The notes under the pieces are model-generated. The model saw nothing but the letters and a program-made list of their open reading frames with translations, made no database searches and had not been told where the DNA came from. A DNA stretch of 64,000 nt from Candidatus Omnitrophota bacterium (GTDB lineage Bacteria > Omnitrophota > Omnitrophia > Omnitrophales > JACROU01), in assembly GCA_029261035.1 (NCBI GenBank), contig JAJDCD010000005.1, positions 91,516-155,515 of the forward strand, written 5' to 3'. The translations under genes and the position numbers were made by a program. Below, piece after piece: positions 5,251 through 60,600 of the stretch. Position 1 is the stretch's first letter. Each line of letters starts with the position of its first letter.

Positions 5251-5300
5251 TTAGGATTTAAATTAAAGCTAAAAGCTATAGATTTTGAAGAGGAAAAGTT

Positions 5301-27764: not shown

Positions 27765-28481
27765 ATGCAAAAAATCAAAATATTTCCTATTTTTATTTTT
27801 TCATTGATGACCCTATTTTTATTTTCAGGGGCTTCACTTTTTAAGAACAAAGCTTCTTCTGAATCTTACGAGCCTCTAAAAATTGCAATCTTACCTATTG
27901 GCCATATGCCTGGAAAACCTTTGACAGTGCCTATGGGGAAAAATCTTGTTGATAAAATTGTAAACTCTACACAAGGGGATAATTTTATAAGTGAAGCGAT
28001 TTTTAAATCTACAGAAACCGCCAAAGACCCTACTTATGTTGAAAAACAGATATATATATTTATTGGTCGGATGCTTAAAAAACAAAGCTGGTTTGTTGTA
28101 AGTCCTGTTGATGTTTTTGCGGAGTTTAATTCATTAGGTTACTTGAGAAATAACATTGATTTTAAGGAATTGAATGAGCAACTTCATGCAGATAGATACC
28201 TAAGTGTGAACATTGATTACTGGGATGGGGAAGATTATGATAAAGAAGGGTTTATGTATGTGGGTTATACCGCACAGCTTTTAGATTCCAAAGGGCAGTT
28301 GATGTGGGGGCGGAAAAAAGAAAAAGAATTATACCGAATCAAAGAAGATCAAGAGGATGTTAATTCTTTCGTTAAAGAGTATTATGAGGAGCTGATACGA
28401 AAAATTGCTAAAGATATAATTTATAAATTTCCTAAAGTAGAAAAAAAGATTGTCAAAAAAGAGGTTGTGATTAATGACTAA
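27765..28481 (+). CDS. Hypothetical secreted protein
   Basis: N-terminal hydrophobic signal-like segment 'IFPIFIFSLMTLFLFSGASL'. No known domain. Overlaps the next ORF by 8 nt. Confidence 0.5.
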   Translation: MQKIKIFPIFIFSLMTLFLFSGASLFKNKASSESYEPLKIAILPIGHMPGKPLTVPMGKNLVDKIVNSTQGDNFISEAIFKSTETAKDPTYVEKQIYIFIGRMLKKQSWFVVSPVDVFAEFNSLGYLRNNIDFKELNEQLHADRYLSVNIDYWDGEDYDKEGFMYVGYTAQLLDSKGQLMWGRKKEKELYRIKEDQEDVNSFVKEYYEELIRKIAKDIIYKFPKVEKKIVKKEVVIND

Positions 28482-39631: not shown

Positions 39632-42600
39632 ATGACGCTTTTGATACGTTTTAAGCAGGCCGTAACCTATTTTGTTTTAGTTTCATTTTTCTTCTCATTT
39701 CTTCCAACAAATTCTTATGCAGATGGTGCAACCATTGGTACAATAAACAGCCTTATGACCACCAATCAATCTATGACACCAACACAACTCAAATTAAGCG
39801 AAGTAGCCATCCCTAATAAGATAGGTGTTATTGAATATACCTTCAAGGGGAACTCTGCGCCTTTATTTTATATTCAGGATGCTCATAATTCATTAGAAGC
39901 TCAAAAAAACATAGCGGCTTTAATTAGTCTTTTGGTGCAAGAGTACGGTGTTAAGACTGTTTTGGTTGAGGGAGTTGAAGGTAAGGTAAATCTGGACACT
40001 TATTTTCAATTTTCAGATTCTAATGTTAAGGAAAAAGTTTCAGACTATTTTCTGGAACACCTTCGTCTGAGCGGAGCTCAATATGCTCATATTAATCGAA
40101 CCCAAGATTTTGATCTTATTGGAATTGATCATTTTAAAACATATAAGAAAAATCTTTCAGCCTATGAAAAAGCTGCAAAAAACCGAGAAGTCATTCAGCA
40201 AGACTTGGCTCGAATTTCTAAAGTTCTTAAGTCTTTAGGGGATCGTTTCTATTCTAAAGAAATTAAGGAATGGTTAAAGTTAAAGTTAAGAGTGGAAGAT
40301 AAAAAGCTTTCGATGGGGGATTACCTGTTTCGTTCGATGAAAATGGGCGATTTTCAATTAGAACAATTTCCAAATTTGAAATTAATTTCAACATACCTCA
40401 AACAAGATCAATTATCTAAAGAAGAAGCAAGCCTTTTAGACAAACAATTGAAACAATTGGATTCGGATGTTTTTTTTAATGAATTGAATCAATTTGAAGA
40501 GGCTTTAATTAATCAGTTTTTGACGGACGCTACAGCTAAACAAGTATTAAGATATCAACGTATCGTTGATTTGTTAAATAAACTGAACCTGATTTCAGTA
40601 ACACCGGAAGAGTATTTATTGTTGAAAGAAGAGTTGAAAGAATTTAACTCTGAAGTTCTGGCTAAATTTTTAGCTGCCCATTTAAAGAAAACAATTTTAG
40701 TAAAAAAAGAATGGGAAAAGCTAATCAAGAACTCCCTTGAGTTTTATGAGTTGGCTCGCGAAAGGGATGTTTTCTTCAAAAGACAACTTGAAGCAATTAA
40801 CACCCCTTCAATTTTGGTTACAGGAGGTTTTCATAAAGAGCCTGTGACTAACTTCTTGAAAAAGAATAAAATTTCTCATGCTGTTTTGGCACCTCAAATT
40901 AGTCGTATCAATAAGAAGTATCAAGAACGATATGATTTCTTAATGTCTGGTCAGTATTATGACTTTGAAACATCTTTTATCAAACAAGACCCTGCCGTAC
41001 AAGCAGCTCAGCAGCAAACCTTAGCTTCATTTGCTCGAGATGGGCGGAATGTTCAAGGGATTGTGAATGAAGCGATTATTCAGTTGTTTCCTAATTCCCA
41101 AGAGGCTCGTGCTGCTAGTTTAGGAAATGATAATGCTCTAAAAATTGAACAAGCTTTGAGTCAGGGAGATATTACAACCGGAACCATGCAGTATCTTTAT
41201 GAGTGGTTGAAGCTTCCTGGAGACTTAACTATTCAAGGGACAAATGTATTAGCACGTATTCAGACATTGATAGATGGTAAAAATTGGAAAGAGCTTAATG
41301 ATGCTTTTTTTCAAGAAGTAAAACCAGGAACGGCAGGTGTTCGTGGAGAGTTGGGGATCGGAAGTAATCGAATTAATGTGGTAACCATTGGTAAGTTTGT
41401 AGAAGGTCATGCTCGCCACTTGGAAGCTGTGTGGGCTGGTAAGGTTGAAGGAAAAGAGATTGATACAAACAAGACAGAAAAGGCTGTAATTTTAGCTTAT
41501 GATCCTAGAGAAGGTTCTTATGACGCCCAAGCTAAAGGGCCAGGTTATTTAGTTAAAATGGCTGCTGCCATTTATGCAGCGCATGGATTTAAAGTTTACG
41601 TGTTTGATGGTCCTGCACCAACGCCAGAGTTGTCCTTTGCAGTTCAAAAGCTGGGGGCATTAGCAGGTGCTGTATTTACAGCAAGCCATAATCCTAAAAC
41701 GGATAATGGGTTTAAACCTTATGACGAAACAGGTCAGCAACTTTTAGGCCCAGATGCTGAAGGTCTAAATCAATATGTGGCTGAGATAAAACAGTTTTCT
41801 GATGTGAAAAAAGCATCTTATGATGAAGCTCTTGAGAAAGGGCAGGTTGAAATTGTAGGGCCTACCATTGATGAACAATATGTAAGTGAGTTGCTTCAGT
41901 ATGGTGTGCACATTAAAGCTGATGGTAAATATGACCTAGAACACATTAATACAGATATTACTGTTGGATTTTCTCCTTTGCATGGTACAGCGGGAAGAAC
42001 AGTTCCTGCTTTATTAGCAGAAAGAGGAATTTCTGCAGAAAATATTTTTAATGTTGAAAGCCAATTAAAACCTGATGGAACATTTCCAACAGCAGCAAAG
42101 CCCAATCCAGAAGAGGATGCGGCGTTAGATTTGTTAAAACAATTGGCAGTTGAAAAGAAAGTTGATGTAGCAGCAGCCAACGATCCTGATGCAGATAGGG
42201 TTGCTGTTTTGGTTCCAACCAGTGATGCTAAAGAAGAGTATTTTCTTCTAAACGGGAATCTACAAATGGCAGTGATTGCGGATTATTTACTGAACCAACT
42301 TTCTAAAAAAGGAACTTTACCTAAAAATTCTGTTTTTTGGAAATCTTTGGTGAGCTCAGATCTTATGATGAAAATAGCAGAAGCTTTTGATATTCCAACT
42401 GTAGAATCCCGAGTTGGTTTTAAATTTGCCGGGGATAAAATGAAGGAATACGAAAAACTAGCCGTTGCTCAATTGTTATTAAATGATGAAGAAGAATTTG
42501 TTGCTATTAAAACAAAAGTTGAAAACGACGGGTACAAGAGTCTAAATCGATCCGAAAGAGAATTGATTCTTTCTCGTTTCTCTCAAGTTCTATTGTTTGG

Positions 42601-45355
42601 TGGAGAAGAATCTTATGGGGCTAATCGTGGGGATATTGTTCGAGATAAAGATGGTCCTGCTATGATTGATATGTTTGTTGAAATTGTTGGACGGTATAAA
42701 AAACAAGGAACAACTGTTTATGATCGTCTTTTTGGAGCTAAAGGCATTTTTGATACCTATGGGTATTATCGTGAAACTTTAGGTTCTTACAAGACGCAAG
42801 GAGCTGAAGGAAATGCAATTAAACAAGCGATTATGACAGAGTTTGCATCCAATCCTCCAGCAGAAGTTGCGGGAAAGAAAGTTGTGGCTGTGTTAGATTT
42901 TGCAGAGCAGACAGCTAAATTACCTAAAGGAACACTTCTTTTTGATGGGGAATATAAAAGCGAAACTACTCCAGGTAAGTTTGAACTTGAAAATGAGTAT
43001 GAAGTACATACGTTTAATGACTTGAATGGTAAAAATGTGGGGAGAGAAGGATTTGTGGAGTTGATTTTTGAAGATGGTTCCCGTGTCATTGTAAGACCTT
43101 CAGGGACAGAACCAAAAATTAAATTTTATGCCCTTGGAAGAGGAGAATATTCTGATCGTGAGGCAGTTGATGTATTTATCTCTGCCGCACAAACGGAATT
43201 AGCAGAAATTGCAACCAAAGTTGCAGATAGTTTTAATGCGGCTTCTCTAGGAGCGTATTCGGAAGCTGAATTGGAAAAAGGGAAGGCTTATTATGAAGGA
43301 AGGTTGGATACAACCCCTATTTCTCGACCATGGAGACCTAGCATTGATGCTGACGTTGATGCTATCTTTAAGATGGATACTGCTGAAAGGTTAGAATACA
43401 TTGCTTTGGCGGTTGAATCTCTCATTAAGGGGAAGGGTGTTATAGGAACTCTTGCTGCAGGTGCTAGTTCTCGTATGCCAACTTCTGAGGCTCCTGAAGA
43501 AGTTAAAGAATTGATTCAAGGTAGGGAGATTAAGTCTAAAGCTGCTGTTCCAGTAGGTGTTCTTGATGGACAGGTTTATACTTTTTTAGGAGCTTTCCTA
43601 AAAAATATTGAGCGTCTTCAAAATCAAATTTCTGATTTAGCACGTTCTGATGTTAGACCTTCTGTTTTGATTTTATCTAATCAAGATTATAGGGAAGAGC
43701 TTCAGACGGAGTTGGATAGAGAAAGTCGTTATGGTTTAGATGAGAGTCAATTTGTGGTTTTTAATCAGGAGTTAGGCAACCAATATGTTGCTACTCCAGA
43801 GCATGTCAGAAATCTATATGAATCTGGAAAAATTGATAAAGCTAGATACGATCAAGCAATAGAAATTTCTGAGAATGTTCAAAAGAGATTGTCTGATGGC
43901 AGTATTGAGGCGGTAATTTTGGAGGGGGAACAAACTCCTTTAGGTCATGGTGAGTTTTTTCATCAATTAATTTCTAGCGGGACATTTTTGCAGCTCGTAG
44001 ATAAAGGGCATGAATGGATAAGTGTTCGTAATATTGATAATGCAGCGGCCACTTTTGATGAAGACTGGCTAGTTACTTTGGGTCTTTTTATAAAAAAAGG
44101 ATTGGCGATGCAGCCTGAGGTATCTCCGCGAAGCCCAGGACAAAAAGGTGGAAGTTTGATTGTTACTACAGATAACGGAAATCATCGATTGGCTGAAGAT
44201 CCTGAGATTGCTGCAAAGGGCTCAGAAACCAATTTGCAAAAGGATTATATTGGAGAGACTTCTTATTGGTTTAATGATGCTGTTGCGATTATTGGAACTC
44301 AATTTGTTGTTGATATTTATAAATCTCCTAACCAGTCTAGTGAGGAATTTCTAAATGAACTTCGTGCTAACGCAGAAAACCCAACTGTGCTTGAAGCAAT
44401 AGCTGAAAGAGGGAGAAGTAAATTTCCAACGCTCATGGACCCTAAACCAGCGAAAGAAAGTGACGCAATATCACTAAAGATTGAAACGAATATGTGGCAG
44501 TCTACAGGTGTTGGTAGTGGTGCTGTTAGAGTAGAAGCTGTTGGAGTAACTGCAGTAAAGAATATAGAGCAAGGTTTTGCTGATTTGCCTCTTGAAGATC
44601 AGCGGCAGAAGGTTAGAGAATTAAGAATGTTAGCAACAAAGCAATGGGGGAATCCGGAAGATCCTCAAGTTGAAACTTATTATGGAAATAAGCCTTACAT
44701 AGAACTAATTTTGGAACACATTGCAACTTCTCAATTTATTCCAGAAGGTTTAGATCTGTCAAAAGCTTCAAGTTTGGGTGTGATGACCAAGGAAAAAAGA
44801 CTATCATTACTGGAGTCAGCATTTAATGATTATGCTGCTCTCTTGGATCAACCAGCACCGGTTGTTCTTTCGTTAGACGATGTGCTTAACTTTTCAGATA
44901 CGGTGGCTAAAGAGGTTCAAGTTCTTCTCTTAGAAGGAAAGATAAAGGTTCTTTTAACAGGGGTGACTGATCGCTCATTAGTTCCAGATGTTTTTAATCA
45001 GGAATCTCAAAATGTAGAAATTATTTCAGATGCTATTAGCGCAAACGATGTATCTAAATACAGTGGTTTCTTAGGAAAGGGAAAAGTGGTTCACTTATCT
45101 CAATCTTTAGATTCTCCTGAAACGATAGCCTCTCGTTTGGGTGACGCAAAAGACCGCTTTGTTTTCGTGAAACAACCAGAAAAACAAAACGGAGTATTAA
45201 GCGCCGCGCTTCTTTTCGCATCAGGTTCTATTGAATACAAAGAAGCATTCAGACAAGACGCTTCTGGTTTCTACGTTCCAACAGCCATAGGTCGTCTCAT
45301 GATGAATTTATTCCAAGAATATGTAGCGCAAACGATTATCGAGTCTGCAGCCTAA
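39632..45355 (+). CDS. Giant protein 2 (1907 aa): signal peptide, shared N-domain, a complete alpha-D-phosphohexomutase (PGM/PMM) domain, a eukaryotic-type UDP-glucose pyrophosphorylase (UDPGP family) domain, and the shared C-terminal domain
   Basis: PGM motifs all in frame: 'GTAGVRG' (~41330), 'TASHNP' (41678-41695), 'DPDADR' (42182-42199), 'GEESYG' (42602-42619) and 'RPSGTEPKIKFY' (43094-). UDPGP-like: 'LAAGASSRM', 'FNQ', 'GHGEFF' (43943-) and 'ISVRNIDNAAATFDEDW' (44030-). Confidence 0.85.
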   Translation: MTLLIRFKQAVTYFVLVSFFFSFLPTNSYADGATIGTINSLMTTNQSMTPTQLKLSEVAIPNKIGVIEYTFKGNSAPLFYIQDAHNSLEAQKNIAALISLLVQEYGVKTVLVEGVEGKVNLDTYFQFSDSNVKEKVSDYFLEHLRLSGAQYAHINRTQDFDLIGIDHFKTYKKNLSAYEKAAKNREVIQQDLARISKVLKSLGDRFYSKEIKEWLKLKLRVEDKKLSMGDYLFRSMKMGDFQLEQFPNLKLISTYLKQDQLSKEEASLLDKQLKQLDSDVFFNELNQFEEALINQFLTDATAKQVLRYQRIVDLLNKLNLISVTPEEYLLLKEELKEFNSEVLAKFLAAHLKKTILVKKEWEKLIKNSLEFYELARERDVFFKRQLEAINTPSILVTGGFHKEPVTNFLKKNKISHAVLAPQISRINKKYQERYDFLMSGQYYDFETSFIKQDPAVQAAQQQTLASFARDGRNVQGIVNEAIIQLFPNSQEARAASLGNDNALKIEQALSQGDITTGTMQYLYEWLKLPGDLTIQGTNVLARIQTLIDGKNWKELNDAFFQEVKPGTAGVRGELGIGSNRINVVTIGKFVEGHARHLEAVWAGKVEGKEIDTNKTEKAVILAYDPREGSYDAQAKGPGYLVKMAAAIYAAHGFKVYVFDGPAPTPELSFAVQKLGALAGAVFTASHNPKTDNGFKPYDETGQQLLGPDAEGLNQYVAEIKQFSDVKKASYDEALEKGQVEIVGPTIDEQYVSELLQYGVHIKADGKYDLEHINTDITVGFSPLHGTAGRTVPALLAERGISAENIFNVESQLKPDGTFPTAAKPNPEEDAALDLLKQLAVEKKVDVAAANDPDADRVAVLVPTSDAKEEYFLLNGNLQMAVIADYLLNQLSKKGTLPKNSVFWKSLVSSDLMMKIAEAFDIPTVESRVGFKFAGDKMKEYEKLAVAQLLLNDEEEFVAIKTKVENDGYKSLNRSERELILSRFSQVLLFGGEESYGANRGDIVRDKDGPAMIDMFVEIVGRYKKQGTTVYDRLFGAKGIFDTYGYYRETLGSYKTQGAEGNAIKQAIMTEFASNPPAEVAGKKVVAVLDFAEQTAKLPKGTLLFDGEYKSETTPGKFELENEYEVHTFNDLNGKNVGREGFVELIFEDGSRVIVRPSGTEPKIKFYALGRGEYSDREAVDVFISAAQTELAEIATKVADSFNAASLGAYSEAELEKGKAYYEGRLDTTPISRPWRPSIDADVDAIFKMDTAERLEYIALAVESLIKGKGVIGTLAAGASSRMPTSEAPEEVKELIQGREIKSKAAVPVGVLDGQVYTFLGAFLKNIERLQNQISDLARSDVRPSVLILSNQDYREELQTELDRESRYGLDESQFVVFNQELGNQYVATPEHVRNLYESGKIDKARYDQAIEISENVQKRLSDGSIEAVILEGEQTPLGHGEFFHQLISSGTFLQLVDKGHEWISVRNIDNAAATFDEDWLVTLGLFIKKGLAMQPEVSPRSPGQKGGSLIVTTDNGNHRLAEDPEIAAKGSETNLQKDYIGETSYWFNDAVAIIGTQFVVDIYKSPNQSSEEFLNELRANAENPTVLEAIAERGRSKFPTLMDPKPAKESDAISLKIETNMWQSTGVGSGAVRVEAVGVTAVKNIEQGFADLPLEDQRQKVRELRMLATKQWGNPEDPQVETYYGNKPYIELILEHIATSQFIPEGLDLSKASSLGVMTKEKRLSLLESAFNDYAALLDQPAPVVLSLDDVLNFSDTVAKEVQVLLLEGKIKVLLTGVTDRSLVPDVFNQESQNVEIISDAISANDVSKYSGFLGKGKVVHLSQSLDSPETIASRLGDAKDRFVFVKQPEKQNGVLSAALLFASGSIEYKEAFRQDASGFYVPTAIGRLMMNLFQEYVAQTIIESAA
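41250..43170 (+). other. Phosphoglucomutase/phosphomannomutase-like domain within giant protein 2
   Basis: All five phosphohexomutase signature motifs are present in the canonical order (see giant 2). Confidence 0.8.
43300..44750 (+). other. UTP-glucose-1-phosphate uridylyltransferase-like (UDPGP family) domain within giant protein 2
   Basis: The 'GHGE...SG...L..G.EWISVRNIDNAAATFD' block parallels eukaryotic UGPase 'GHGD...SG...G.EY.FVSNIDNLGATVD'. Gly-rich 'GTLAAGASSRM' parallels 'LNGGLGTSMG'. Confidence 0.6.
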
Positions 45356-45669: not shown

Positions 45670-48600
45670 GTGTCTTTTAGAAAGGTTTTTGCTTATTTAA
45701 TGGGATTTTTGTTGGCACAAAAATATAGGTGTTTAGTAAGGTTTATATCCATAAACTTGGCTTTTATCTTTTTGTTGAATACGGTTGTTGAAGCAGCTCC
45801 GTTGATGCAACATGTGATGACTCCGTCTGTCTTATCCCAATCTGCTATTAATTCTTTTTCTCAACCTCCTTATCTTCCTTTAAGCCCAATTCAAATCAAT
45901 TCCCAGATAGGTTCTGTTCAAGAGAGCTATTTACCCGTAACAAAAAAAGATTCTCCACAAGTTTACTTAATTCAAGATGCTCATGAGAGTTTGGATGCTC
46001 AAGAGAATATTAAGAATATTTTAGAAAAACTTGTTCTAGAGGAAGGTGTGGATACCCTTCTTTTTGAAGGTGGAAGTCTTGATTTTAATTCAAGTATTTA
46101 TCAATTCTCTTCTGATATGGAAATAAATCATCGAATGTGGAAAGAGTTGTTTCGTCAAGGGCACTTGAGCGGGGTGGAGCTTTTTGCTTTAAATCAAAGT
46201 GGTTCCGTTCGATTGAAAGGAATTGAAGATGAATCTATTTATTTTAAAAATCTCAAAACAATTTTAGATACAAATCGACTTTATAAAAAATCTCAAGATG
46301 AGATATTGAGAATAGATCAGCAATATACAATAAAGAAACAAAAAACTTTTTCTGAGCCTTTAAGAAAATTAATAAAAGAAAGAGATGATTTTAGAAAAAA
46401 CAAAAACAATTTTAATCCATATATGCTCTTTTTGATGAAAGAAGCTAAAAAGCGTATAAACCTGGATTTGTCTCAAGCTAAATACCAAAAGCAATACCCT
46501 CAACTTGTGCGTTATTCGAAAATTTCTCAATTTGAAAAAAAGATAAAAGAAAATAGGGATGAAGTGGAGAAGCAACGTATAGAGCTTTTAGAGTTAACTC
46601 AGAATAAGGTGGCTAAGAGTTTGACTAAAGAAAGCTTTCTATTTCTTTTTAATCCAGAGCAACATTATTTAGCTCGAGATCAGTTGCGTTGGTATTTTGA
46701 GTCTTGGTGCGAATGGGCTCAGGCAGAAAATATTGATGTTCAGTTGTACTCTCATTTTATAAATTGGATGGCTTATCATATTCTTAAAAATGAAATGAAA
46801 GGCCCTCAGCTTTTTGATGAATTACAGACTATTGAAATCTTGTTGTTGAAGAATTTGAATCTATCAGAAGAAGAACGGAAGTTGTTGGCCGAAGAGGATG
46901 GGTGGAATTTATGGAATAAGCTCGTTTCTTTAAAGCTCACAAGAGAGGAGTATGAGCGACTTAGAGATACAAATCCTAAGAATGATTTAAAGGGTTTGAA
47001 TTTGTTAACCCAAAAAGCCCTTGAAAACTATGAATGGGTGATCAAAAGAGATGCTGTTTTGTCAGAAAAAGCAATTGAAGCAATAAATTTAAGTAAGTCT
47101 AGTCGAGTTGCTGTCGTTACGGGGGGGTTCCATTCTTACTTTTTAACCCAGAAACTTAAAGAAGAAAAAAAGAGTTATGTTTTAATTGCACCCCGTATTT
47201 CCCAATTAGAGCGTTCTTTGAATTATAAGGATCGAATTCAACAATTATTTTCTTCGACAACAGCATTGGATATTCCAGGAGCTCTTTTGAGCGATCTCTC
47301 CAAACAACGTTTGCTTGTAGCTGCAAGATCTTTGGGAATCCAAGGGGCTAAGAAAAAGGATCTTCCAAGAAAGAGTGGGGCTCAGAGAGAAGATGAAATT
47401 TTTAGAACTCATATTTCTGTGCCTATGCCAGAAATAGAACAGATGCTTTCCTTTCCAGGAAGAATCCAACCATCAATGCAAAATGCTTTGAATGAAACAA
47501 TCAAGCTGATTGTAACGCTGTTTGAAGATGCTTTAATTTCTGTTAATAGAAATGAAGTAGAAAATTTAAAGCGATTTCAAAAATACCCAGGAGGAATTTT
47601 TTATAATCATTTAACGGATGAGCTTAGAGGTGCTATTTCAAATTCTTTGGACTCAACTTTGGAGCGCTATCGACGAGAGGGTATTAGTAGGGAGTTTATT
47701 CATATTGTATTTCGAGTTTATAAGGACCAAGAAAGTAATTATTTTATTGATGTTATTGACGAAGGTGTTGGGGAAACAGCAATTAACAAGACGAATGTTA
47801 AACGTTATTCCGGAGAACGGTATTTAGGAAAGAGAGGAGTTGATCGAGGGAAATCTCTAGAAAGTCAAGTGATGGGTGTTTTTGATGCTCAGCTTTTTGA
47901 ACGAGAAGATGCTCAAGGTGCTGTTTTAGAAATAAAACTCAGCCAGAGAAAAGTCCTTAATCATTTTAAGGAATCAATGGAGGGTTTAAACCTTAGAAGG
48001 GTTAGTAAATACATGGATTCGTATGGGCAGAGTTTGGGTAGGACTAAAGAAGCTTACAATATGCGAATAAATGGTAACCAAGTAAATATACTTGACGCCA
48101 TGATGGAAGGAGAGTTTAAAACAACTTGGCTCACAAGTTTTAAACCTGAAGCATTGCCTAAACTAAAATTACCAGATAAAAAAGAATCGTATTCATTAGA
48201 TGAGGCTTTTATTGTTTTTAGGCAATTAAAGGGAAGTCGATCGTTAACTAAATCTGCATTTAGTGCATGGGTAAAAAAGGTTTTGAGTCGTAGAGCGAGT
48301 TCAAGGATATCTAGAGAATTGCTATCTAATTTGGTGAATACGTTTAGTCTTAGTGAAGCCCGTACTCATTTAGGTGGAGATATGGTAACTGTAAGAGAAA
48401 AAGCTAAGAAAGCAGGTGCTATTTCTGTAGAACATCGCATGTTTATTTCAAGGGATTGGGTTGATCGACAAAGAATTTATCGCTATCAATTGGTTCCGGT
48501 TCATTTGCTAGCAAAAGTAATGGGTGTGAGTAAGAAAGTTCTATTATCTTATTTGGAAGAGCCTAAGAAAAGATTCGGGGACTACTTGTGGGAAGAAGAC

Positions 48601-51600
48601 CTCTTAAAGAAGAAGTCTTTGTTAGAAGTATCAGCAGAGGGAACTAAATATCATATGGATGGGGCTGGTAAAGCATTAATGGTTAGTTTGGTGACAGCGT
48701 ATCAAGTTATTTCAATTTATAGAAAATCATTACGAAACAAAAAGGAGTCTTACTCTGTTGATGAATTGGCAGGATTACTTGGAGTGACAAAAAACATTCT
48801 TGCTCAGGCTATTAAGTCTGGTGAGATTGCAGTGATCCACCTTCCTTTTTTAGGTCCAGAACCTAGAATTTCGATTGTAGATTCAGAGGGAATTCTAAAT
48901 ATTTTTTCAAAAGTAGTAAAAAATTATTCTAAAGTTCTTCGTCCTTATACAAAAAAGAAAATCTCATCTTGGAGAGAATTGATGGCTGTTGTTTCTGGGT
49001 GGGAAACAACCAACTCTTTAAAGGAAAAATGGGGCTTTAAATCTCATAATGGAATTCATCAGATGATGAGTAGGGGTAAAATTAAAGGGTTTCATATTGT
49101 GCACCCTTTAACAGAACAAGGGGTTTGGTATTTTCCTCCTGAAGAAGTAGGTCGAGTTGATGATTTGGAAGAGATGAAACTAGCCAAGGTTTTGAAGATG
49201 GTGAACAAAGGAAGTCGTGCAAAAATTAAGACACGAAGTGAGTTGGAAAAGGTGCTGCACTCTTACTTTTCTTTAGAAAAACTTGAAAAGCGATGGTCTG
49301 TTTCTAATCGAAGTTTGAAAGGAATGATTCAAAGAGGAACGTTAGAGGCAGTTCGATTAGATTTTATTGGGGAACAAAAGAGAGGGTATTTGGTTTCTCC
49401 TAAAGAGGTGAAGAGAATTGAGGGATTGGAACAAAAAAAATTAAAAAAAATTAAGAGATTTGTTTCTAAGTTTTCATCTCAAACAATTAAAACAATTGGT
49501 AAGTTAAGAAAAGTTACGCAGAATTGGATTAAACCAACAACACTTGATGAAAGACTAGGGATTAGAGGGGGTACAGTTCGGCAAGCTATTGATAATGGGT
49601 TGATTCAAGCTGTACGCATGGATTTAATTGCATTTGGTGGTGATAAGTCCGCATATTTAATTCCAACAGCAGAGATTAAAAGATTGGAAGGAAAAGTTAA
49701 AGCTCTAGCTAGAGATATCTCAGCTTTTTCAAAGAGTAAACCTAAAACAATTCAGGATATTAAAACAGCAACTAGAGAGTGGTTGAGAATTGAAGATTTA
49801 GCTAAGGAATTTGATGTTTCATTCGAAACCATTTTTGCGTTAGTGCGATCGGGTGAAATAACAGCGTTTAAATTAGATTTAATTGGTTTAGGGGCATCTA
49901 AAGCTCCGTACGTGATTCCTCCAGAAGAAGTATCGAGAATTCGTGAGGAGCAGAATGAGAAAAAAAGAAAAGTGCTTTCTTTTGTGGAGCAGTATGAAAA
50001 TGTTTCTTCTGAAGATGAAATAACGGTAATGAGGTTAAAAGATATTACGAGTCGTTGGGTCAAGTTAAGGCAATTTAAGACAGAGTTTGGTGTTCATTTG
50101 GCTACAGCGTTTAATTATGTAAGGCAGGGAAAAGTTAATGCAGTTCAAATGGATTTGTTGGGTTATGGAGGAAAGAAAGCATTTTACTTAATCCCACCTC
50201 AAGAAATTGAAAGAATTCGCCAAGAAGATAAACTTAAACTGACTCAAATAATTGATTTTGTTAGAACGTATATTAGTTCTAAAAGAAGAGTTAAGACATG
50301 GGAGGATGTTCAACAAGTTACAAATAGCTGGTTAAAGATTGAGGATTTAGTCAAAGCTGCTTCTGTTAAATTTGCGACAGCTTCAAGGTGGGTTAAAACA
50401 GGCAAGGTAAAAGGCATTAAAATTAAACTGATAGGGAAGAATAACACAAATGGTTATTACATCATTCCACCTCAAGAGATAGATAGGGTTAAAAAAGAAA
50501 GAATGGATCGGAATAATCTAGCGTCTAGTTTAGGCCAGGAATCTACTGCTGTAGTTGATGTTCTATATCAAAAGTATCGATTTCTTTTACCTAAAAGTGT
50601 TCAGAAACAATTTAATTATGAGTTGGTGGCAGGGTGGTATGAAGTTGTTTCATCTGATACAACTGTACTTCCGATGAAAATATTTGATTTTATTCAAAAA
50701 GTATATTCTTTATTAAGTCCCAATGAAGTAAATCAAGTAGCTGTTTTATTAGCGGACTTTCAAAAAGAGATTACAGAAATTTTGACGGCAGATGAGTCAC
50801 TGGAACCGTCTGAAGAAGAAAAAGCACCTCAAGAAGTAGAGTTGGTAAAAGCAGTGGCGTTACAAAAGCTTGTGGAGAAAAGACCTTTAGTAGATGAGAT
50901 CTGGGAAGGAGACAAAAAAGCTCGGATCTCAATGGATCCTGTGTTTTGGGGTGTTCTGCATTCCGATGAAAAGAAAGAATGGTTAAAGAAAATAAAGAAA
51001 ATCCTTACCCGCAATTACTCTTCATTGAAAAAGGGGTTAGATTATGAAGAGCCTATTGGAGGCGGAAAAAAATTTAGGTCTCTAAAGTTAGGTTTGGTAG
51101 ACGCGCCGCTAGTGCTTTCCCACGGGGTTAAAATTCATGCTATGCAACTCAAAGGAGTTGTTTTTGATTCTGGAAATATAACAGATGTTTTTAATATGCA
51201 TCACGCTAAAAGAGAGTGGGGGCAGAAGCTCCCAGATGCTCCTGTCGTACAACCTATTTATCATGAAGATGGAACTATCAGTTACATCCCTCGACAGTGG
51301 TCTCCTAAGGGCGGAATGGTATTAGATGAGGCTAAAAGAGAATTTGAGATGCATCGTTATTTTATGAAAAGTGGAATGCCTGTAAATTACCCCCTTGCTT
51401 ATGGAGAGTTTTTGGGTGAAAAGGAACCATTAGGCAGAAAAATAGGATTTGTTTTATTAGGTCAAAGATTTCAACAAAACTATCGTTTCCATGATGTGCT
51501 GAACCGAATTTTGAATGCGAGGTATGTAGTGCCTATACAGGAGCTTTCAAAAGAGGGTAAAACACCAGAAGAGATCGAGAGTTTATTTAGAGAAACCGAA

Positions 51601-54600
51601 TTAGAGTTATTGGCCAACATTCAATCACATGGTCACTTGCTTCGCACGATTCATACTCCTATGGTCCAAGAAGAGGAACGGTGGGAGGGGGCTTTTCATG
51701 GAAATTTACATCCAGCAAATGTGAGTGTGGATCCTGATTATTTTCTAAATATTCATGATTTAACCCATGCATACAACAAAGAAGAAGTAAGTTCATTGAA
51801 AGAGCAATTTGCAAGACAGTTACTTGATTTTGATGCTGCTTTATCGAGAACTCTAGAAGATAAAGTTTTCATGGACTCGCAGTTACAAGACTTTCATGTA
51901 AGGAAAGGGTTGCCTGTTTCTTGGAAGGGTATGGAGTATGTGAAAACTTTTCTTCTTGGCTATTTTTATGATTTTCCACCAGAAGTTATTGAAAAAGTGG
52001 CTAGAACCATGGTTATGGAGATAGAGGGACACCCCATAACTCGCACCAACAATATTATACAAAAACTAGGAGTGACTCGACTTCCTGCTTATCAACATCC
52101 AGACTTTATTTTCGATCTGATGCGGTATGTTGTTGGAATTAAAAAAGATGGAACACCTCTTTTAGAAGAAGAAAAAGAATCTGCTAAGAAAGAAATAGAA
52201 CAAAAAATTCTTGCCTCCAGTTTAGGTCGTACTAAAGATCATTTTAATATGACCTTCGAAGGACATGCTTTTAATATTTTAGATGAAATGAAGAAGGGCA
52301 ATTTTAGTATGAAGTGGATTTTGAATTTTAAACCAGAACCGCTTACTAGGATACAGGTGCCGGATAAAAGTGTTTATGTGAGTCGAAAAACCGTTTTAGA
52401 AGCAGCAAAAAGAAAAAGATTTGGCTTACCTTTAAGTGCTAAACGGTTAGAACAGTTACTGAAAGCAGGTGCAATTAAGCAGAATGAGAAAGGGGAGTTG
52501 AGTCGTTATGATGCTGAGTCTTTTATAAATGCTTATAGTTTGAGAGAAACGGCTGAGCTTACAGGTCTAAATAGAGATCGATTGTCAGGCTTATCAGGCA
52601 GTAAAGACCGTATGGTTGTTGTGCAGGGAAACTATTATGTTTTCCATGATTGGATTGAAGAAATGCGGGCACGGCATCATCGCCTTGTGCCTGTTTCTCT
52701 TTTATCTGAAATGCTGAACCTAACCCATTCAACATTTCTGTCTAATCTCCGGAATCCCAAAAAATTCTTACGTCCTCATCTATTAAGGCAGTTATTCGAT
52801 GATAGAAAAAATCTGTTAGAGTCTCGATTTACAGGAGAAGAGTACCACTATTTTGGAGATCATTCTCCAACGTTGTCTGTGGATATTTTAACGGCATGGA
52901 GTATCTTTCAATTACTTCAAAGGGTTCCTAATATGGAAACGGCCAGTACGGTGGATGAATTATCTAAAAAACTTTATGTTAATAGAGTTTTTGTGTCAAA
53001 AGCTATCGAAGAAGATCGGGTTGAAGCTACTTTGGTTAGGGGTATGCGCAAAGGAGGTCCTGTTTATTTAATTGATGAAGAGGAGGTAAGGCGCATAGAA
53101 AAAGAATTTAACCAAAAATTAAAATTATTAATAAAGGAAGTTAAAGCTTATGTTGATTCAAAGGTCCCTTTAAAAACATGGGAAGATATTCAAGAAGTTG
53201 TCAAAAATTGGGATACAACAGAAACATTAAAAGAACGATGGAATTTTAAAAGTATTAGTGGTATTCATGAAATGATGAGAAGGGAAGTTTTGAAGGGTGT
53301 TAATGTTGTAAACCCCTTATCCACAGTAGGTGTGAATTATTTTCCTCCACAGGAAGTTGAGAAATTAGATAAAAGAGATAGAAATAAGCTTGATGAAATC
53401 TTGGAATTTATTAACAGATATAGAGGGTCTCCCATTACAACTCGTGCTGAGATTGATGCAGCTGTAAGTAAATGGAGCACTCCTACTTATTTATCTAAAG
53501 TGACTGGAATACCAAGGCAAACAATGACCCGAAGAGTAAAGAAGGGTGCTGTCAAAGGTGTTCTGTTAGATCTTATTGGTTTTAAAAAGAAATTCATGGT
53601 TCCTCCTTCTGAAGCCCAAAAATTTATTCAAGCAAACTCAAAAATAAGTAAAGCCTCAAGTTTAGGAAGATCTAAAGATCATTTTGATGCCACAGTCCTA
53701 GGAGAAGAAGTGAATTTGCTTGATGCCATGAAAGAGGGCGCGTTTAAAGTCCAATGGTTTTTTAGTTTTAAGACTAAGAAGCTTCCTCGAGTTGAAATTC
53801 CAAAAAAACAAAAATATCTTACTAAAAAAGAAGTGTTACAGTTAGTATCTCAAGTAAAAGGAAAAAGAAGAATTGGTCCTTTGCGTTTGAATCAATTAAT
53901 TGAGAAAGAATATATCAAAAGAGATTCTAATGGAAACTTAAATCGAGAGGATGTGTTGTTTTTTCTAAATGCATTTTCATTAAATGAAGCGGCAGCATTC
54001 ATTGGGGTAAACCCAGACAGGCTCGGTAAAATTGCCTTAGAAAATGGATCGGTGAAATATGGTAAAGAGTATTTTGTTCCATATCAATGGGTTGAGCTAT
54101 TAAGAGCCAATTTTCACGATCTTGTTCCTATTCGAATTTTAGCAGAAATGTTAGATATGGAATTTTGGAACCTGGTAAATAAATTAAGAAGCCCTTCAAA
54201 TTATTTTTCCGAAGATATTATAAAAGAGTTTTTCCCTTATCAAGAGACTTTAATTGATAAAAGAATTACAGGAGAAGAGTATCACTTTATCAATGGTAAC
54301 AATGTTTTGGCTGTTGATTTGGCTACGGCATGGATGCTGTTTGTCATATTTAGAATGTTTCCAAATCCCAAGAAAGCGGCCACATTGACTTCGTTGGCTA
54401 ATAAACTTTCTGTGAACAAAACATTGGTATCTACAGCGGTGAAGGAAGGTCGAATTAAAGCGACTCTCGTTTCTGTCTTAAAAAAGGGAGTTCCGTCCTA
54501 CTTGGTTGATGAAGAAGAGTTTGACAGAGTTATTAAGGAATACAGTAAGAAGCTGAAAGACCTTAAAGCTTTGTTAGTTCCATATCTGCGAGGTAAACAA

Positions 54601-57600
54601 CTGAAGACGTGGCAAGATATTCAGGAAGTGGTTCAAGGTTGGGATACTGCAGAATCTTTAAAAGAGAAATGGGGATTTAATCAGGTTGATAGAATCCACA
54701 GAATGGTGAAAAGGGGCCTATTAAAGGGAGTTCATGTTGTGAACCCTCTATCGGTACATGGGAAGTGGTACTTTCCACCTTCTGAAGTGGAAAAGGTAGA
54801 TGTTGTAGATCGAGAAAAACTGCAAGAAGCTTTGGGTTTTGTTAATCGCTATAGAAAAAGGAAAATACGAACTCGAGAAGCGTTAATCAAATCTCTAAAG
54901 AGATGGAGTTCGCCAGTTAAGTTAAGTAAATCAACAGGAATCCCTCGTCAGACCATGACGCGCTTGGTGAGAGATGGGTATGTGGAACATGTAAAGCTAG
55001 ATATATTAGGACAACGGTCTCGTTATGTTATTCCTCCAGAAGCTGCTAAGAGATTTATAGACGAGTTGAATGAAAAAATTATTACCTTTTCAGATAAACA
55101 CTTATCTCCTTATGGTCAAGGTGCTAGAACATATAAACAACTAAAAAAATTGCTTAATAGATGGTATACGATTTCTGAATTAAGTAAAACAACAGGAATT
55201 AACCAAGAAGAAATTGCCTGGAAAGTTGAAATCGGTGAATTAAACTCTGTCAATTTTGATTTCACTCCTCTTCAAGGGAGGATATACATCCCACCTCAAG
55301 AAGCAGAGAAATTAATTCAATCTTCAAGCGTGTCTGCTAATAGTTTAGGTGTTGCAAAAGAGCACTTTGATATTTTTGTTAATGGGAAGAAAGTAAATTT
55401 GATTGATGCGATGGTTGATGGGTCATTTCGTCCAGAATGGATAAGTCGTTTTGTCCCTAAATCTTTACATGAAGTAAGCTTAAAAAATGTTGCTCCATCG
55501 ATTACTTTTGAAAGAGCTGAAGAGTTATCAAAAAGATTGGGGCAAAGAGTTATTACTGTTTACATGCTTTCCGAATTACAAGAGGCGGGTATTATAAGTA
55601 AAGAGTTTGAAGGAATGATTTCAAAAGAAGATCTTCAGTTTTTAATTAATTCCAGAAAATTGGGGGAAGCGGCACGGCTTGTAGAGCTTAATGAGGCTGA
55701 TGTGTGGATGTTTGCTTCCAAACATGGAGCAAAAAGGTTGCGTAGAGAGTATTTCGTTCCTTTGGAGTGGATAGAAGAAGTTATGCTTAGAAAGCACCAT
55801 TTGATTCCAGTTCAGTTATTAGTTGATGAGTTGGGTGTGAACTATGCATCTTTTGTGGATCGTTTAAAGAACCCAAGAAAGCATTTCTCCAAAATTATAG
55901 CTGAGGGCTATTTGGAAGGGAGAGACTCATTGCTAGAACCTTCTCTTAGAGGCAGTCTTGTTCATGGAAATTATCAAAATTTTATGATTGATTTGTCCCT
56001 AGCGTGGAAAGTAGTTCGATTAATTAAGGAAAAATCACTGTCCGACGGATACATCACTTCGGATGTGTTAGCAGAAAGAATAGGCGTTGATGTTAATGTC
56101 ATTCTTTTAGGGATTAGAAATGAACTGATCAAGGTTAAAGAGATTTCTGATATTGCTGGTAGTGGCAAGTACCATTATGCCATTTCTGAGGATGAAGCAG
56201 AAAGAATAGAAAAATTATTTAGTGCTCAGTTGGCTGTATATCAACAGACTTTGGAAGAAAGTGGTTTTATAAAAAGAAAGTTAAACGGATGGAAAGATTT
56301 AAAGAAATTTATTCAGTCATGGCTTGGAACGGAACAGTTGAGACAGCGTTGGGGTTTTACGGGAAATCAAGCAATTATGCAGATGTACCAAAGAGGGAGT
56401 GTTTGGGGATTAGAACTAGCACATCCACTGTCAAGAACAGCAAAAGTCTTATTTCCATTGAAGGAAATTAGGAGCATTGAGAGAAAGGAAAAAATCAAAT
56501 TCGAACTTATTGCTAAATTTATTTCTGAACATGTTGGAGTAGAGGTGAATGAAAAAGCAGAAATGTCAGATGTTTTTGAAGATTGGTATACCGTAAATGA
56601 TTTACTGAAAGCCACAGGCTATAGTCGGAAAAAGGTTATGAGACAAATAAATAACGGGAATATCCCCTCAATCAAAATAGATCTACTAGCTATGCAAAGC
56701 CGTATTGTAATTCCACCCACTGTAGCTCAGCTGTGGATTGGACAACAACAAAAACCACCTTCGACAGCCTCCAGCTTAGGTAGAACAACAGAAGATTTTA
56801 ATATTACTGTGAATGGAACTCCTGTGAATTTACTGGATGCGATGATGGAAGGAACATTTCAAATATCTTATTTACTGCAACTATATCAACCTATGAAAAG
56901 ACAAGGTCATGCTCCTAAGAAAGCTTACTACTCCATTGATGAAGTGCTTGAAATCTTTAAAGAGAAGGGCAGAGGCCCTATAAGGAAGTTACATATAAAT
57001 GAGTTTGTGACAATGAAAAGAAGAAAAAAAGAGGATAAGAGAATTAGGCATGAAGAGCTTCTCTGGTTGCTGAATACGGTACCTTTAAAAGAAGTTACCA
57101 AGTCTTTAGTTGGTCAACATTCGGATTTAAGAGAAAGGGCATTAGAGGGCGGTGCTGTTTTAGTTAAAGATAGAATGTTTGTTCCTGTTGCATGGCTTTC
57201 CCAACAGCAAGAAAAACAGGCTAATTTGGTTTCTGTGGGTTTATTAGCGAAAGTTATGGGTGTTTATCGCACTAAGCTATTTAAGTATATATTGGATCCA
57301 CAAGGGATGTTTGGAGAGGCTATTTTTAATCAATATTTTCAAGACAAAGAATCGTTGTTGGAATTGTCTCAAAACGGAACAGTTTTTCATGGAACACAAA
57401 AGGCACGAATGATTACACTAGAGACAGCTTGGGCAATTGTAAGAATTTATAAAATCTCATTAGAGAGAGCGAAAGGCTCTATTGGTATTGTAGCGTTAGG
57501 CGAAGAGTTGGGTAGAGATCGTTACTTTGTTGACAAAATTATTAGAAGAGGAGAAATAGATGCTTCGTTTATTCCTTTAGTAAGTGACGGCAAATATAAA

Positions 57601-60600
57601 GACAGAATAGTAGCTTCAGAACTTGAAAGAATTAGGGCTTTATACCGTAGATCATTAGCAAGTTATTCAGATGTACTTAAAAAATATGGGGTTGGTCCAT
57701 TTAAAACATGGAGTGAGCTAGAAGAGTTTTTTGAATCATGGTATACCGCTGATGATGTAAGGCGTAGATTTGGTTTTAAAATCAAACGAAGTGTTTATGA
57801 TATGTCTGAACGTGGAGTCTTGACCGGTATTCATGTAGCATCCCCTCTGATGCCACAAGGCCAAATTCGTTTTTTTCCAGTAGAAGTTGATAATCTTTTT
57901 AATAAAGACTTAGAGAGAGTTAATGAGATTTTGGTATTTATTAATCGCTTCAGAAAGCGTCCTATAGGAAATAAATCTCAAATACAAAGAGCAATTCGCG
58001 ATTGGTATAAACTGCCTCAGTTAGAAAAAAAATGGGCTGTCTCAGATGGAACTTTGTTAGATTCAATTAACAAAGGGAGCTTAGAAGCTATTAATATTGG
58101 CTTGATAGGAATGAAAGAACAAGGCTACTGGGTTCCAAGGCAAGAAGTACAGCGAATTGAAAAAGAACAGAAAAAAAGAAGAGAAGAGATTCTGAAATTT
58201 GTTTCTCAATATACAGATGAATCGATTAATACTACAAAACAACTTAAAAAAGCAACTCGTAAATGGTTCGCTGTTGAAGGAGCTGCAAAGAGGTTGGGGG
58301 TAAAGAAATCTCTGATAAAAAGTATGATTAAACGAAAAACCATTAGAAGTGTGAAGATGGATTTGCTTGGTTATGGAGGGGGTAATACGTTGATGATGAT
58401 CCCTCCTCAAGAGATAGGAAGAATCGAAAGGGAAGAAAAAGAAAAGTTAGATAGAATTATAGCTGATATTTCTCAATTTACTGAGAAACCTTTAATGACA
58501 GTAGAAGATGTTTTGAGAGCAACTCAAAGTTGGGTTAAAGCAGAAGAGTTTGCTAAAGAATTTGGTGTGAATACGGCCCATGTTTTAGCTTTAATTAGAT
58601 CTAATAAAATTCGTGCAGTTGAAATGAATTTATTGAAAGTTCGTGGAAATAAAATGTTTTATTTGATTCCTCTTTCTGAAGTGGAGCGTTTTAAATTAGA
58701 TCAAAAAAATCAGCTTGCTGAAATTATTCCACAAGTACGTGAATATACGGATGCCGAGATTGACACTATTGAAGGTTTGAAAAAAGCAACATTAGATTGG
58801 AGCAGTACGGGGGACTTTTCAAGAGAGTTTGGTTTTCCTGCAGCATCAGTGACTCGTATGATTAAGGCTAACAATATTAAGGCTATACGATTTGATTTGT
58901 TTGGATTTGGAGGAAAAAATAGATTGTATTTAATTCCCCCACAAGAAGTTGCCAGTATAAGGCAAGAACAAGAAAGGAGATTTAAAGAGGTTCAGAATTA
59001 CTTGCTTCATAATTTTAATATCGAAATTATGACATTGACTGATTTAGAAGAAGTAACTCAAGATTGGTTAGGGAAGGAAGATGTTAGGAGAGCTTTAAAA
59101 ATAAGTCAGGCAACATTTTATTCTCATGTGAAGGATAGAAAAGTTAAATCCGTATTTATTGACTTGTTGGGCTACAAAAGAAGAGCTGGTTATTATGTGT
59201 CTCCATATGAAGTGGAAAGGTGGGGGGGAGAGAGTTTAGATGAAGGGGCTTCAAAAAGGAAAGGTGAAAATATAAAATTAAAAGCAAAAAAAATTAAATC
59301 TAAAGCTTCTAGTTTGGGTAGAGAGATAGCGCTTTTGGTTGCGGAAGAGTATCCTTATAATCAGTTGGTGCTTATACTTGATCGTGTAGACAGTTCATCT
59401 GATTATGCTGAGTTTGAGATTCGTTCTAAGAAACAAAAAATTGGAGAAGGAAGTTTTTTTAAGGGAGATGATCATTGGAATTTAGTCCACTTTGAATTGG
59501 GTTCGGAGTATAACTACCAGGAGGAAGGTAAGGAGGTTATAAAGTGGTTTGCTCGATACCTTCAGAATATGTTTCCAGGGAGTAGAAACCCTTTAAGGTT
59601 TGGTTGGGTGTATAACCCTGAAATGTTGAGTTTGGCTCACTCTGTTTTTGAACCAGACTCCATGGAAATAATTTTTAAAAAACCTGGACCGTGGTATTCC
59701 ATGGCTGATCCTAGTTTTAACTTGTTTTACTCTGCAGGTCCTTTACGTATTTATGATGATGTCCCTCTTTCTACAAAAGAAATTAAAGTTATTAAACAAG
59801 GGAGTTTTTACGTTCCTGTGAGCTATCCTCAAGAGGTGAAAAATGTCGTAGTAAGCAAATATCACGTATCAGCACGATATAAAAGTACAGGTAACTTATT
59901 GAGAAAGATTCAGTTTGAGAGACCCTTTTCTATTAAAGGAAAGATACGGAAATCTCTATTGTCTTCCGCACGTTCTCTAGGGGATGAGCAGGATGAGTAT
60001 GGATTAACTCGAAAGCAAAAAGAAGCAGTGCATCATTTCTTGTTTCCTAAAGACTTATCAGGTGAAGCAATATTAAAACAGGTTTTGATGTTACTTATCC
60101 CATATATCCTTTTAGGGGGATTGGTGGCTGCTGTGATGAGTCGTGAGAAAAAGTCAGATAATCAAGCGGTTCCTCAATCAACATCAGAAGGGAAAAGTTT
60201 AGGTGGGACACGGCCTTTGTCTGCGGTAGATTATTTTGCTCAACTGGAACAAGAGCTGTCTGAAGCTTGGCAAGCTTGGGATCATCAAAGCTCGATGATG
60301 GATATGGGTTTTGTCGAATCTGCTTTAGAGCAAAAAACAAATTATTACGCATTGATGGGTCTTATAGCAAATTCGTTTATGCATTTTTCAACTCCTACAT
60401 CAAAATTAGAAGAAGATGACGTAGTTCTTTATATTGCGCCAAATCAAAATGGTAACACAGGTATTTACCGTGTTTTAAGTGTATCTGGAATGCAAGTTCA
60501 ACTGATGAATGTAGCAAACAAAACAATTTTAGTAGCGGAGACGAAGAAAATAAGAAGGATTGATTTATCAAAACCTAGAATTATGTCTCAGGTTGAAGAA

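Follow-up and report, generated by a model that had tools for sequence, protein, structure and literature searches.

The closest described counterparts of the element discussed here are small bacterial DNA-binding proteins of the winged helix-turn-helix (wHTH) type. Among these, BldC binds direct repeats on DNA as a head-to-tail multimer and is structurally similar to the architectural proteins Xis and RacA (PMC5859096), and excisionases or recombination directionality factors, such as lambda Xis, Pukovnik gp37 and RdfS, form filaments or superhelical polymers on DNA (PMC5859096, PMC11963761). The 64,000-nucleotide stretch from Candidatus Omnitrophota bacterium analysed here (assembly GCA_029261035.1, contig JAJDCD010000005.1, positions 91,516 to 155,515; hereafter the window) contains a giant open reading frame (ORF), G, whose product of 5,887 amino acids (aa) carries 24 predicted domains of this kind. 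G, two giant ORFs that precede it on the same strand (A and B) and their relatives in other genomes form an undescribed protein class, here named 'train', and this architecture is a more novel element than the helix-turn-helix (HTH) arrays that it holds.

The likeness to each of these DNA-binding systems has its limits. With BldC, one of the small MerR-like wHTH proteins of Streptomyces, the units of G share the fold, and the head-to-tail arrangement of BldC is what a covalent array would fix. However, BldC is a free 68-residue protein that oligomerises non-covalently, whereas the 24 domains of G are set on helices of ~25 residues in a single signal-bearing chain, their wing is ~5-8 residues longer than that of BldC, and their binding to DNA is a prediction. 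The excisionases share with the units of G the HTH_17 family, with a weak profile match to Pukovnik Xis (4j2n), but the G units stand in tandem in one chain, have an extra N-terminal connector helix and lie in no integrase or mobile-element context among the 20 of the 24 other window ORFs that were scanned. RacA, the chromosome anchor of Bacillus subtilis, has the same MerR-like wHTH fold and is likewise architectural rather than a gene-specific regulator, but it differs from G in combining a single wHTH with a coiled coil, in forming a symmetric dimer and in being cytoplasmic.

From the perspective of the chain as a whole, two further groups of proteins are relevant. In MARTX toxins (multifunctional-autoprocessing repeats-in-toxin) and the large clostridial toxins, effector modules are cut apart at small-Leu-small sites located in unstructured linkers (PMC2900308). 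Trains have the same design of conserved N- and C-terminal parts flanking a variable chain of autonomous modules, but no RTX repeats or C80 cysteine protease domain is found in G with Pfam, and its N-terminus is a Sec-like signal, in contrast to the C-terminal type I signal of MARTX. The second group is formed by giant proteins of Omnitrophota, from the same phylum-level setting, which like G combine great length with a signal peptide and membrane segments and for which the authors suspect post-translational cleavage (10.1101/2023.11.21.568195; 10.64898/2026.06.07.730766). The cleavage points are described as unknown in the 2023 preprint (10.1101/2023.11.21.568195). The giants of the window differ from them in being smaller and in having no C39 or S8 peptidase domain. 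In term searches of both preprints helix-turn-helix, HTH and 'polyprotein' do not occur, nor does 'motif' in the 2026 one, and a junction motif or N-domain reported there would be found through those terms only. Nothing relevant on polyproteins or cleavage motifs in Omnitrophota, or on tandem HTH_17 arrays, was found in the literature.

Winged-helix units and modules of G

To delimit the units of G, nine of them served as seeds for a profile, which was refined by iteration over the three giants. It recognises 23 strong units in G (domain E 1e-9 to 4e-23) and a weak one at aa 3938 (E 0.055), spanning positions 48745-59229 of the window, and it has no meaningful match in A or B. Since a self-trained profile favours its own members, those E-values are optimistic and independent evidence matters. 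Pfam HTH_17 (PF12728) scores 59.2 bits on aa 1-3000 and 89.6 bits on aa 2801-5887, with a gathering cut-off of 27; the Pfam MerR models give no match in G. The units recur with a period of ~88 aa because a conserved helical connector of ~30 aa, with the consensus 'KL..I..FV..Y...I.T...L..VT..W', precedes each HTH of ~57 aa. Pairwise identity between units is 11-37% and no tandem repeat of the unit period is found at the DNA level, which indicates an old array maintained at the protein level; on the same grounds, recent tandem duplication was rejected. Profile statistics and conservation in other genomes exclude chance or artefact as the source of the array.

A sequence-only reading of the window had described about 18 excisionase/MerR-type HTH units from position 49231 onwards, including two tandem five-unit arrays, with single units in every module. 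The type of unit is borne out by the HTH_17 score above the gathering cut-off and by the predicted fold, which is that of MerR-class wHTH domains. The three peptides it quoted are units at aa 1551, 2599 and 4463 of G, and the stretches 49231-50517 (aa 1188-1616) and 57970-59225 (aa 4101-4519) hold exactly five units each. The census itself needs revision: there are 24 units, the first of them begins upstream, at 48745, each array of five belongs, as its core, to a run of seven, and the shorter modules hold 3, 4 and 3 units instead of one. Checked for both, the units show neither a non-HTH fold nor a lack of matches to HTH profiles.

The SLG tripeptide divides G into 13 segments, five of which are paralogous modules of about 480-850 aa that contain the HTH units (M1 to M5 in Table 1). 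A module starts with the consensus 'SLG(R/V).(K/T).(D/E/A)(H/Y/D)(F/Y)......G...VN(L/I)(L/I)D(A/E)M..G.F' and continues with a head of ~240 aa that includes further divergent HTH-like stretches, one of which can be aligned to the unit profile in the same register, though the match is weak (hhalign E 9e-4, probability only 23%). Behind the head stand a single a-type unit, a single b-type unit and between one and five units of the c-type, and the two five-unit arrays are expansions of the c-type. All HTH modules are basic, with an isoelectric point of 9.0-10.0.

The fold was predicted with AlphaFold2 for three consecutive units (aa 1340-1612) from a seven-row paralog alignment, resulting in a model with a mean predicted local distance difference test (pLDDT) score of 86.7 and a predicted template modelling score (pTM) of 0.75. 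Each modelled unit consists of a short helix, a strand, the two helices of the HTH, a beta-hairpin wing and a helix extending for ~25 residues into the unit that follows. Confidence is among the highest in the connectors and is lowest at the wing tips. Foldseek comparison with the PDB matches single units to the BldC-DNA complexes 6ama and 6amk (probability 0.99-1.0, root-mean-square deviation 2.0 Å over 51-55 columns, target TM-score 0.66-0.78) and to the RacA-DNA complex 5i44 (probability 0.97-0.99). The three-unit model as a whole has no significant match, the best being multi-winged-helix proteins with E of 2e-3 or above. As modelled, the units are winged helices of the MerR/excisionase class, that is, of the fold present in BldC, RacA and Xis. 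The helix that follows the wing continues into the next unit and no MerR effector domain is present, which separates G from classical MerR regulators, and units joined by connector helices in a 5,887-aa protein depart from the small stand-alone wHTH protein that BldC represents. G is hence an HTH_17 member at the level of its domains, yet not a BldC-family protein, a classical MerR regulator or a functional excisionase.

Relatives of the module were sought in two ways. In a word-indexed search of 5.8 billion proteins, aa 555-5437 of G as query retrieved only the protein of G itself and one 7,874-aa relative without HTH units. When the 89-position unit profile was run exhaustively against 1.84 billion representative proteins, 1,586 of them matched at E <= 1e-3. 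At the stricter E <= 1e-10 there were 79, most of them with several matched stretches. P0009-P0012 (1,818-4,626 aa) contain the same whole module, with the head and full-length matches to the a, b and c units, usually once per protein, and every module of G aligns with theirs end to end (24-31% identity, E 1e-31 to 1e-68). The giants P0016, P0027, P0029, P0048 and P0075 have 3-7 related units each. Many unrelated small proteins (200-1,100 aa) carry 4-10 tandem HTH_17 domains, for instance 8 in one of 479 aa, some of them being fusions with a ResIII/DEAD helicase or sigma-70 region 4, so tandem HTH_17 arrays are not unique. Such proteins (e.g. P0017, P0013, P0014 and P0129) are alike to G in their tandem HTH_17 domains but lack the ~30-aa connector, the module head, the junction motif and the cysteine depletion. 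The earlier opinion that poly-HTH arrays are unusual thus needs qualification: HTH_17 arrays as such occur in many proteins, and G is exceptional in its number of units and their context.

P0011 is likely the ortholog of G, with 37% identity in the N-domain, 35% in the kinase-like module, 51% in the C-domain and the same neighbouring genes. It has one HTH module with four units, so the five modules and 24 units of G represent a lineage-specific expansion. The kinase-like module, which matches that of P0011 over 603 aa, has two matches in P0002, for which Pkinase is among the precomputed Pfam families; the module of G itself has no Pfam or PDB sequence match.

Train architecture and captured enzymes

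Trains follow a common order: a signal-like N-terminus, an N-domain of ~510 aa, modules bounded by the motif [A/G]-x-S-L-G and a C-domain of ~290 aa, all of it depleted in cysteine. The N-terminus of G is signal-like, as the sequence-only reading had noticed, and this feature is conserved across the family, with signal-like N-termini also in A, B, P0002 and P0010-P0012. The same proteins share the N-domain, in which G is 33-37% identical to A, P0002, P0011 and P0012, and which is seen only in genomes of Omnitrophota and Elusimicrobia/Endomicrobia. It occurs also as stand-alone proteins of 450-570 aa in Omnitrophota (P0004, P0006 and P0007). In A the N-domain occupies positions 29880-31571 of the window, and in B positions 39632-41119.

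In an alignment of 12 N-domain sequences, the histidine of IQDAH, a Glu-Gly pair, an arginine and GG-x-H are invariant; in an alignment of 9 sequences, of these only the first histidine and Glu-Gly are. The predicted structure (pLDDT 80) is built on an alpha/beta core into which a large helical region is inserted. Its top three Foldseek matches are erythromycin-esterase-like (3b55 and 2rad among them), weak at E 0.06 and probability 0.66-0.80, with EreC lower in the list; no Pfam family matches. The motifs loosely fit the His/Glu/Arg/GxxH set of the Ere/ChaN/TraB/TIKI superfamily, which includes some hydrolases. On the modelled fold, the N-domain is a candidate for an activity that cuts the junctions, and no more.

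The C-domain match holds among A, G, P0002 and P0011, and P0010 and P0012 end in a junction-bounded tail of similar length, as read from their sequences. The C-domain of A lies at 38319-39113, and train C-domains end in ...ATMA, ...SMA or ...AMA. Several other giants retrieved with the unit profile end in two small residues (AA, SA or MA).

The junction motif is found at every module border of A, B and G, as well as at module borders of P0002, P0009-P0012 and the giants of loci L001 and L012. A, B and G together contain 18 copies of [A/G]-x-S-L-G, where 0.5 would be expected and 2,000 shuffles gave no more than 4. An alanine or glycine two residues upstream accompanies 12 of 12 SLG tripeptides in G, 16 of 19 in P0002, 11 of 11 in P0011, 5 of 5 in P0010 and 8 of 10 in P0012, and one of the ten in the other 24 ORFs of the window. 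The codons of the junction vary synonymously, so selection acts on the peptide, and its interpretation as a recombination site at the DNA level was rejected for this reason. Around the junction behind the N-domain, the pLDDT of the model stays below 50. The motif looks like a processing-site code, and S-L-G fits the small-Leu-small cutting logic of MARTX and clostridial toxins.

The most telling evidence for this architecture is the equivalence of modules to stand-alone genes. In L012, a locus of a related genome, the gene order is a giant, a phosphoglucomutase (PGM, 710 aa), a UDP-glucose pyrophosphorylase (UDPGP, 495 aa) and P0011, which matches the order in the window, and the two free enzymes are 57% and 56% identical to aa 504-1198 and 1212-1710 of B, respectively. 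The junctions of B lie at aa 496, 1205 and 1714, and the ends of the stand-alone PGM and UDPGP fall within ~8 residues of them; the junction therefore marks the ends of units able to be independent proteins. The stand-alone pair, at L012:6116-9732, is the counterpart of B (39632-45355) and lies between two giants. In L001, on a metagenomic contig of 2.17 Mb, the giant gene just upstream of P0002 (L001:1-9676) encodes 6,359 aa with many WD40/beta-propeller Pfam matches and shows 4 A-x-SLG in the 3,224 aa visible, so that trains stand in tandem in that genome too.

Cysteine is depleted about 30-fold in A, B and G, which contain 4 cysteines in 10,872 aa, against ~120 expected from the 24 neighbouring ORFs (1.1%). 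G has 2, both within aa 1-554, and in P0002 and P0010-P0012 the content is 0.02-0.27%. The stand-alone PGM has 6 cysteines and the stand-alone UDPGP 2, and their copies in B have none. Other cofactor-dependent modules accompany these two enzymes in trains, namely the kinase-like module and, in relatives, carbamate-kinase-like, GHKL ATPase and Ser/Thr kinase modules.

Neighbouring genes and remaining features of the window

The coordinates of G, its parts and the two neighbouring giants are collected in Table 1. The first 29 kilobases (kb) of the window hold ordinary metabolic and transport genes (IspG, thiolase, acyl-CoA dehydrogenase, DsbD, glucan phosphorylase, AmtB and methylcitrate-cycle enzymes), and of the 20 other ORFs scanned out of 24, 17 belong to metabolic, transport or cell-wall families and 3 are matchless. 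IspG is 82% identical to that of the 2.17-Mb metagenomic contig that bears the closest giant-protein relative, and its named matches at 70-74% identity are nearly all from Candidatus Omnitrophota. Two cysteine-free ORFs, at 13278-14312 and 27765-28481, were rejected as relatives of the giants on BLASTP, which finds no similarity.

Table 1. Positions in the window of ORF G, its domains, junctions and modules, and of the giant ORFs A and B
Feature	Position	Strand	Description
Giant ORF A	29880..39116	+	3,078 aa; train class; N- and C-domains shared with G, 3 junction motifs, 2 Cys, own array of ~60-aa units
Giant ORF B	39632..45355	+	1,907 aa; train class; N-domain, PGM, UDPGP, short tail; 3 [A/G]-x-S-L-G, 0 Cys
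Giant ORF G	45670..63333	+	5,887 aa from GTG; 17.7 kb; houses all HTH units
P0001, public version of G	start at ATG 45700		5,877 aa
Signal-like N-terminus of G	45700..45801	+	basic residues, hydrophobic stretch, then ...VVEA/AP; from hydrophobicity scan
N-domain of G	45802..47328	+	~510 aa; motifs IQDAHESLDAQ.NI, EGG, RD, GGFH
[A/G]-x-S-L-G junctions of G (n=12)	47323-47337, 48025-48039, 50521-50535, 52213-52227, 53653-53667, 55336-55350	+	
Junctions of G, continued	56767-56781, 59305-59319, 59968-59982, 60190-60204, 61141-61155, 62452-62466	+	
M1	48031..50535 (aa 788-1622)	+	bounded by GQSLG and ASSLG; 7 units: 48745-48888, 48991-49161, 49255-49425, 49516-49692, 49771-49947, 50047-50223, 50320-50496
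Kinase-like module	50536..52218 (aa 1623-2183)	+	interrupts the HTH modules; label from motif HGNLHPANV alone
M2	52219..53667 (aa 2184-2666)	+	3 units: 52945-53103, 53200-53373, 53464-53631
M3	53659..55350 (aa 2664-3227)	+	4 units: 54379-54537, 54631-54801, 54895-55062, 55153-55320
M4	55342..56781 (aa 3225-3704)	+	3 units: 56044-56214, 56311-56484, 56575-56742
M5	56773..59319 (aa 3702-4550)	+	7 units, first weak: 57481-57636, 57730-57897, 57994-58164, 58255-58431, 58522-58695, 58789-58965, 59056-59229
Internal hydrophobic transmembrane-like segment of G	60067..60144 (aa 4800-4825)	+	sole one; downstream of all HTH modules
C-domain of G	62467..63330	+	~290 aa, ends ...LATMA; 51% identical to the C-terminus of P0011, 30% to A, 23% to P0002

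The array of A spans aa 963-2711 (window ~32766-38012) and consists of at least 11 divergent helical units of ~60 aa that end in a '[FY]-x-H-P-x-[FY]'-like motif, with E-values that derive from a self-trained profile. These units have no sequence kinship to the HTH_17 units, and part of the array has counterparts at three places in P0002. Neither Pfam nor PDB sequence searches give a match for aa 555-787, 1621-2184 and 4549-5597 of G and for its C-domain. The junction-bounded segments at aa 557-787, 4551-4768, 4846-5159 and 5163-5596 (window 47338-48030 and 59320-62457) have no Pfam match and no BLASTP match among the related proteins examined. The first of them contains the motif pair NSLDS ... 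DEGVGE, which looks somewhat like GHKL ATPases, a likeness that none of the searches confirms.

Proposed working and alternative explanations

By analogy with the filaments formed by Xis and BldC, the HTH modules of G may be exported, probably processed modules that coat DNA as covalent versions of such filaments, a reading to which we assign an even chance. The protein would leave the cytoplasm in an unfolded state, its small-Leu-small junctions would be cut, and the modules would be freed as separate proteins. Each basic poly-wHTH module would then lie along double-stranded DNA as a ready-made head-to-tail filament, the covalent array accomplishing what Xis and BldC achieve by cooperative oligomerisation, with low sequence specificity expected. 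The target DNA would be located outside the cytoplasm of the producer, either as the nucleoid of a prey or host or as extracellular DNA. The sequence-only reading had considered a nucleomodulin-like effector delivered into a host cell, an idea for which the signs of export are indirect. No eukaryotic host is indicated, the relatives being Omnitrophota and Elusimicrobia.

Several observations underlie the inferred export and cleavage, the binding to DNA and the placement of the target. The conserved Sec-like signal and the removal of cysteines fit a protein that crosses the envelope unfolded, and in this respect the cysteine depletion is indirect support for export. With a single internal membrane segment, at aa 4800-4825, all HTH modules are predicted outside the cytoplasmic membrane. 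The end of helix 1, the end of the recognition helix and the wing tip are rich in basic residues, and this clustering, together with variable base-reading positions, suggests coating or bending of DNA rather than specific reading. The ~25 helical residues between units measure by arithmetic, and not on the model, ~37 Å, close to one turn of B-DNA. Since trains carry cofactor-dependent modules, action inside another cell is more attractive than action in the periplasm, and it is at the same time the least supported step of the proposal. As for the cut, the near-absence of cysteine rules out a protease in cis of the MARTX or clostridial type, and a cysteine protease domain such as that of MARTX was rejected on this account.

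Several points weigh against this reading. HTH_17 alone recognises 6 of the 23 strong units at E <= 0.01 (best 8e-6), the rest being linked by the self-trained profile, and a search of PDB sequences with the unit profile gives nothing significant (best E 0.013; the excisionase Pukovnik Xis 4j2n, E 0.2). From unit to unit, and likewise among orthologous modules, the recognition helix differs at its exposed positions, with no conserved DNA-reading surface evident, and both the geometry between units and the fit to DNA come from arithmetic instead of model coordinates. By the predicted topology, the arrays lie beyond the cytoplasmic membrane, in a place normally free of DNA, and train modules that need ATP, UTP or similar cofactors speak either for action inside another cell or against any export. 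No protease is identified for the proposed cleavage, the fold match of the N-domain being weak (E 0.06), and no secretion-system genes are seen adjoining the giant genes.

Some of these points are shared by an explanation that we consider unlikely, namely that the wHTH units have lost nucleic-acid binding and serve as protein-interaction beads or as a rigid spacer in a very large envelope-associated protein. Tandem winged helices serve in this way in several eukaryotic and bacterial assemblies. The variable surface of the recognition helix and the predicted extracytoplasmic location are as expected for a scaffold, the long and confident connector helices give a rod-like build, and the three-unit model as a whole resembles only multi-winged-helix proteins that are mostly not simple DNA binders (UFL1, STK19, the C-terminus of SelB and TFIIIC tauB; E of 2e-3 or above, low TM-scores). 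However, the nearest structures of single domains are DNA complexes, those of BldC and RacA, the modules are strongly basic, and HTH_17 arrays elsewhere travel with DNA enzymes. The module is moreover kept as a discrete junction-bounded unit in other trains, which suits an autonomous function more than a spacer.

The question of location also admits a cytoplasmic organiser of the nucleoid tethered to the membrane. The N-terminal hydrophobic segment would be an anchor, the bulk of the protein would remain in the cytoplasm of the producer, the 24 winged helices would anchor the chromosome at the membrane in the manner of RacA, and the substrates of the enzyme modules would be cytoplasmic. This would agree with the fold match to the RacA-DNA complex, with the cytoplasmic cofactors needed by the PGM, UDPGP and kinase-like modules, with the PGM and UDPGP genes of ordinary cytoplasmic type at the same position in a relative, and with the lack of secretion genes nearby. 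Nevertheless, basic residues before the N-terminal hydrophobic stretch and an A-x-A-like site after it point to export of the chain behind them, the sequences flanking the internal membrane segment are consistent with a crossing from outside to inside, and the 30-fold depletion of cysteine, including the loss of all 8 on capture of PGM and UDPGP, is left unexplained, all of which makes a tether of this kind quite improbable. Binding of the units to structured RNA, in the way the tandem winged helices of SelB bind the selenocysteine insertion sequence (SECIS) element, is very improbable, since the SelB matches to the whole model, which include the C-terminal fragment and an RNA complex (E 0.015-0.16), are weak and of low TM-score and the modules, although basic, belong to a DNA-binding family, HTH_17, with confident single-unit matches to MerR-class DNA complexes.

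For exported modules that coat DNA, a broader picture can be drawn, which we regard as doubtful: trains would be Sec-exported, cysteine-free polyproteins of Omnitrophota and their relatives in which autonomous proteins, including captured housekeeping enzymes, are chained between the N- and C-domain and released by a cut between the L and the G of [A/G]-x-S-L-G, and the poly-wHTH modules, of which G has amplified its set five-fold, would act as effectors that enter a prey or host cell and coat its nucleoid. If true, this would represent a new design of effector delivery, and for the giant proteins of the phylum a cleavage code would have been predicted for the first time.

As a domain, the wHTH is ordinary; 24 of them on rigid connectors would amount to a natural covalent Xis/BldC filament, convenient for studying how DNA is shaped. 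The setting matters more, as it bears on whether the giants of Omnitrophota work as intact proteins or after being cut up. The coincidence of junctions with the ends of stand-alone orthologous genes provides explicit sites for experimental tests of cleavage, and the almost complete loss of cysteine, which extends to freshly captured enzymes, constitutes a simple sequence signature for finding trains in other genomes.

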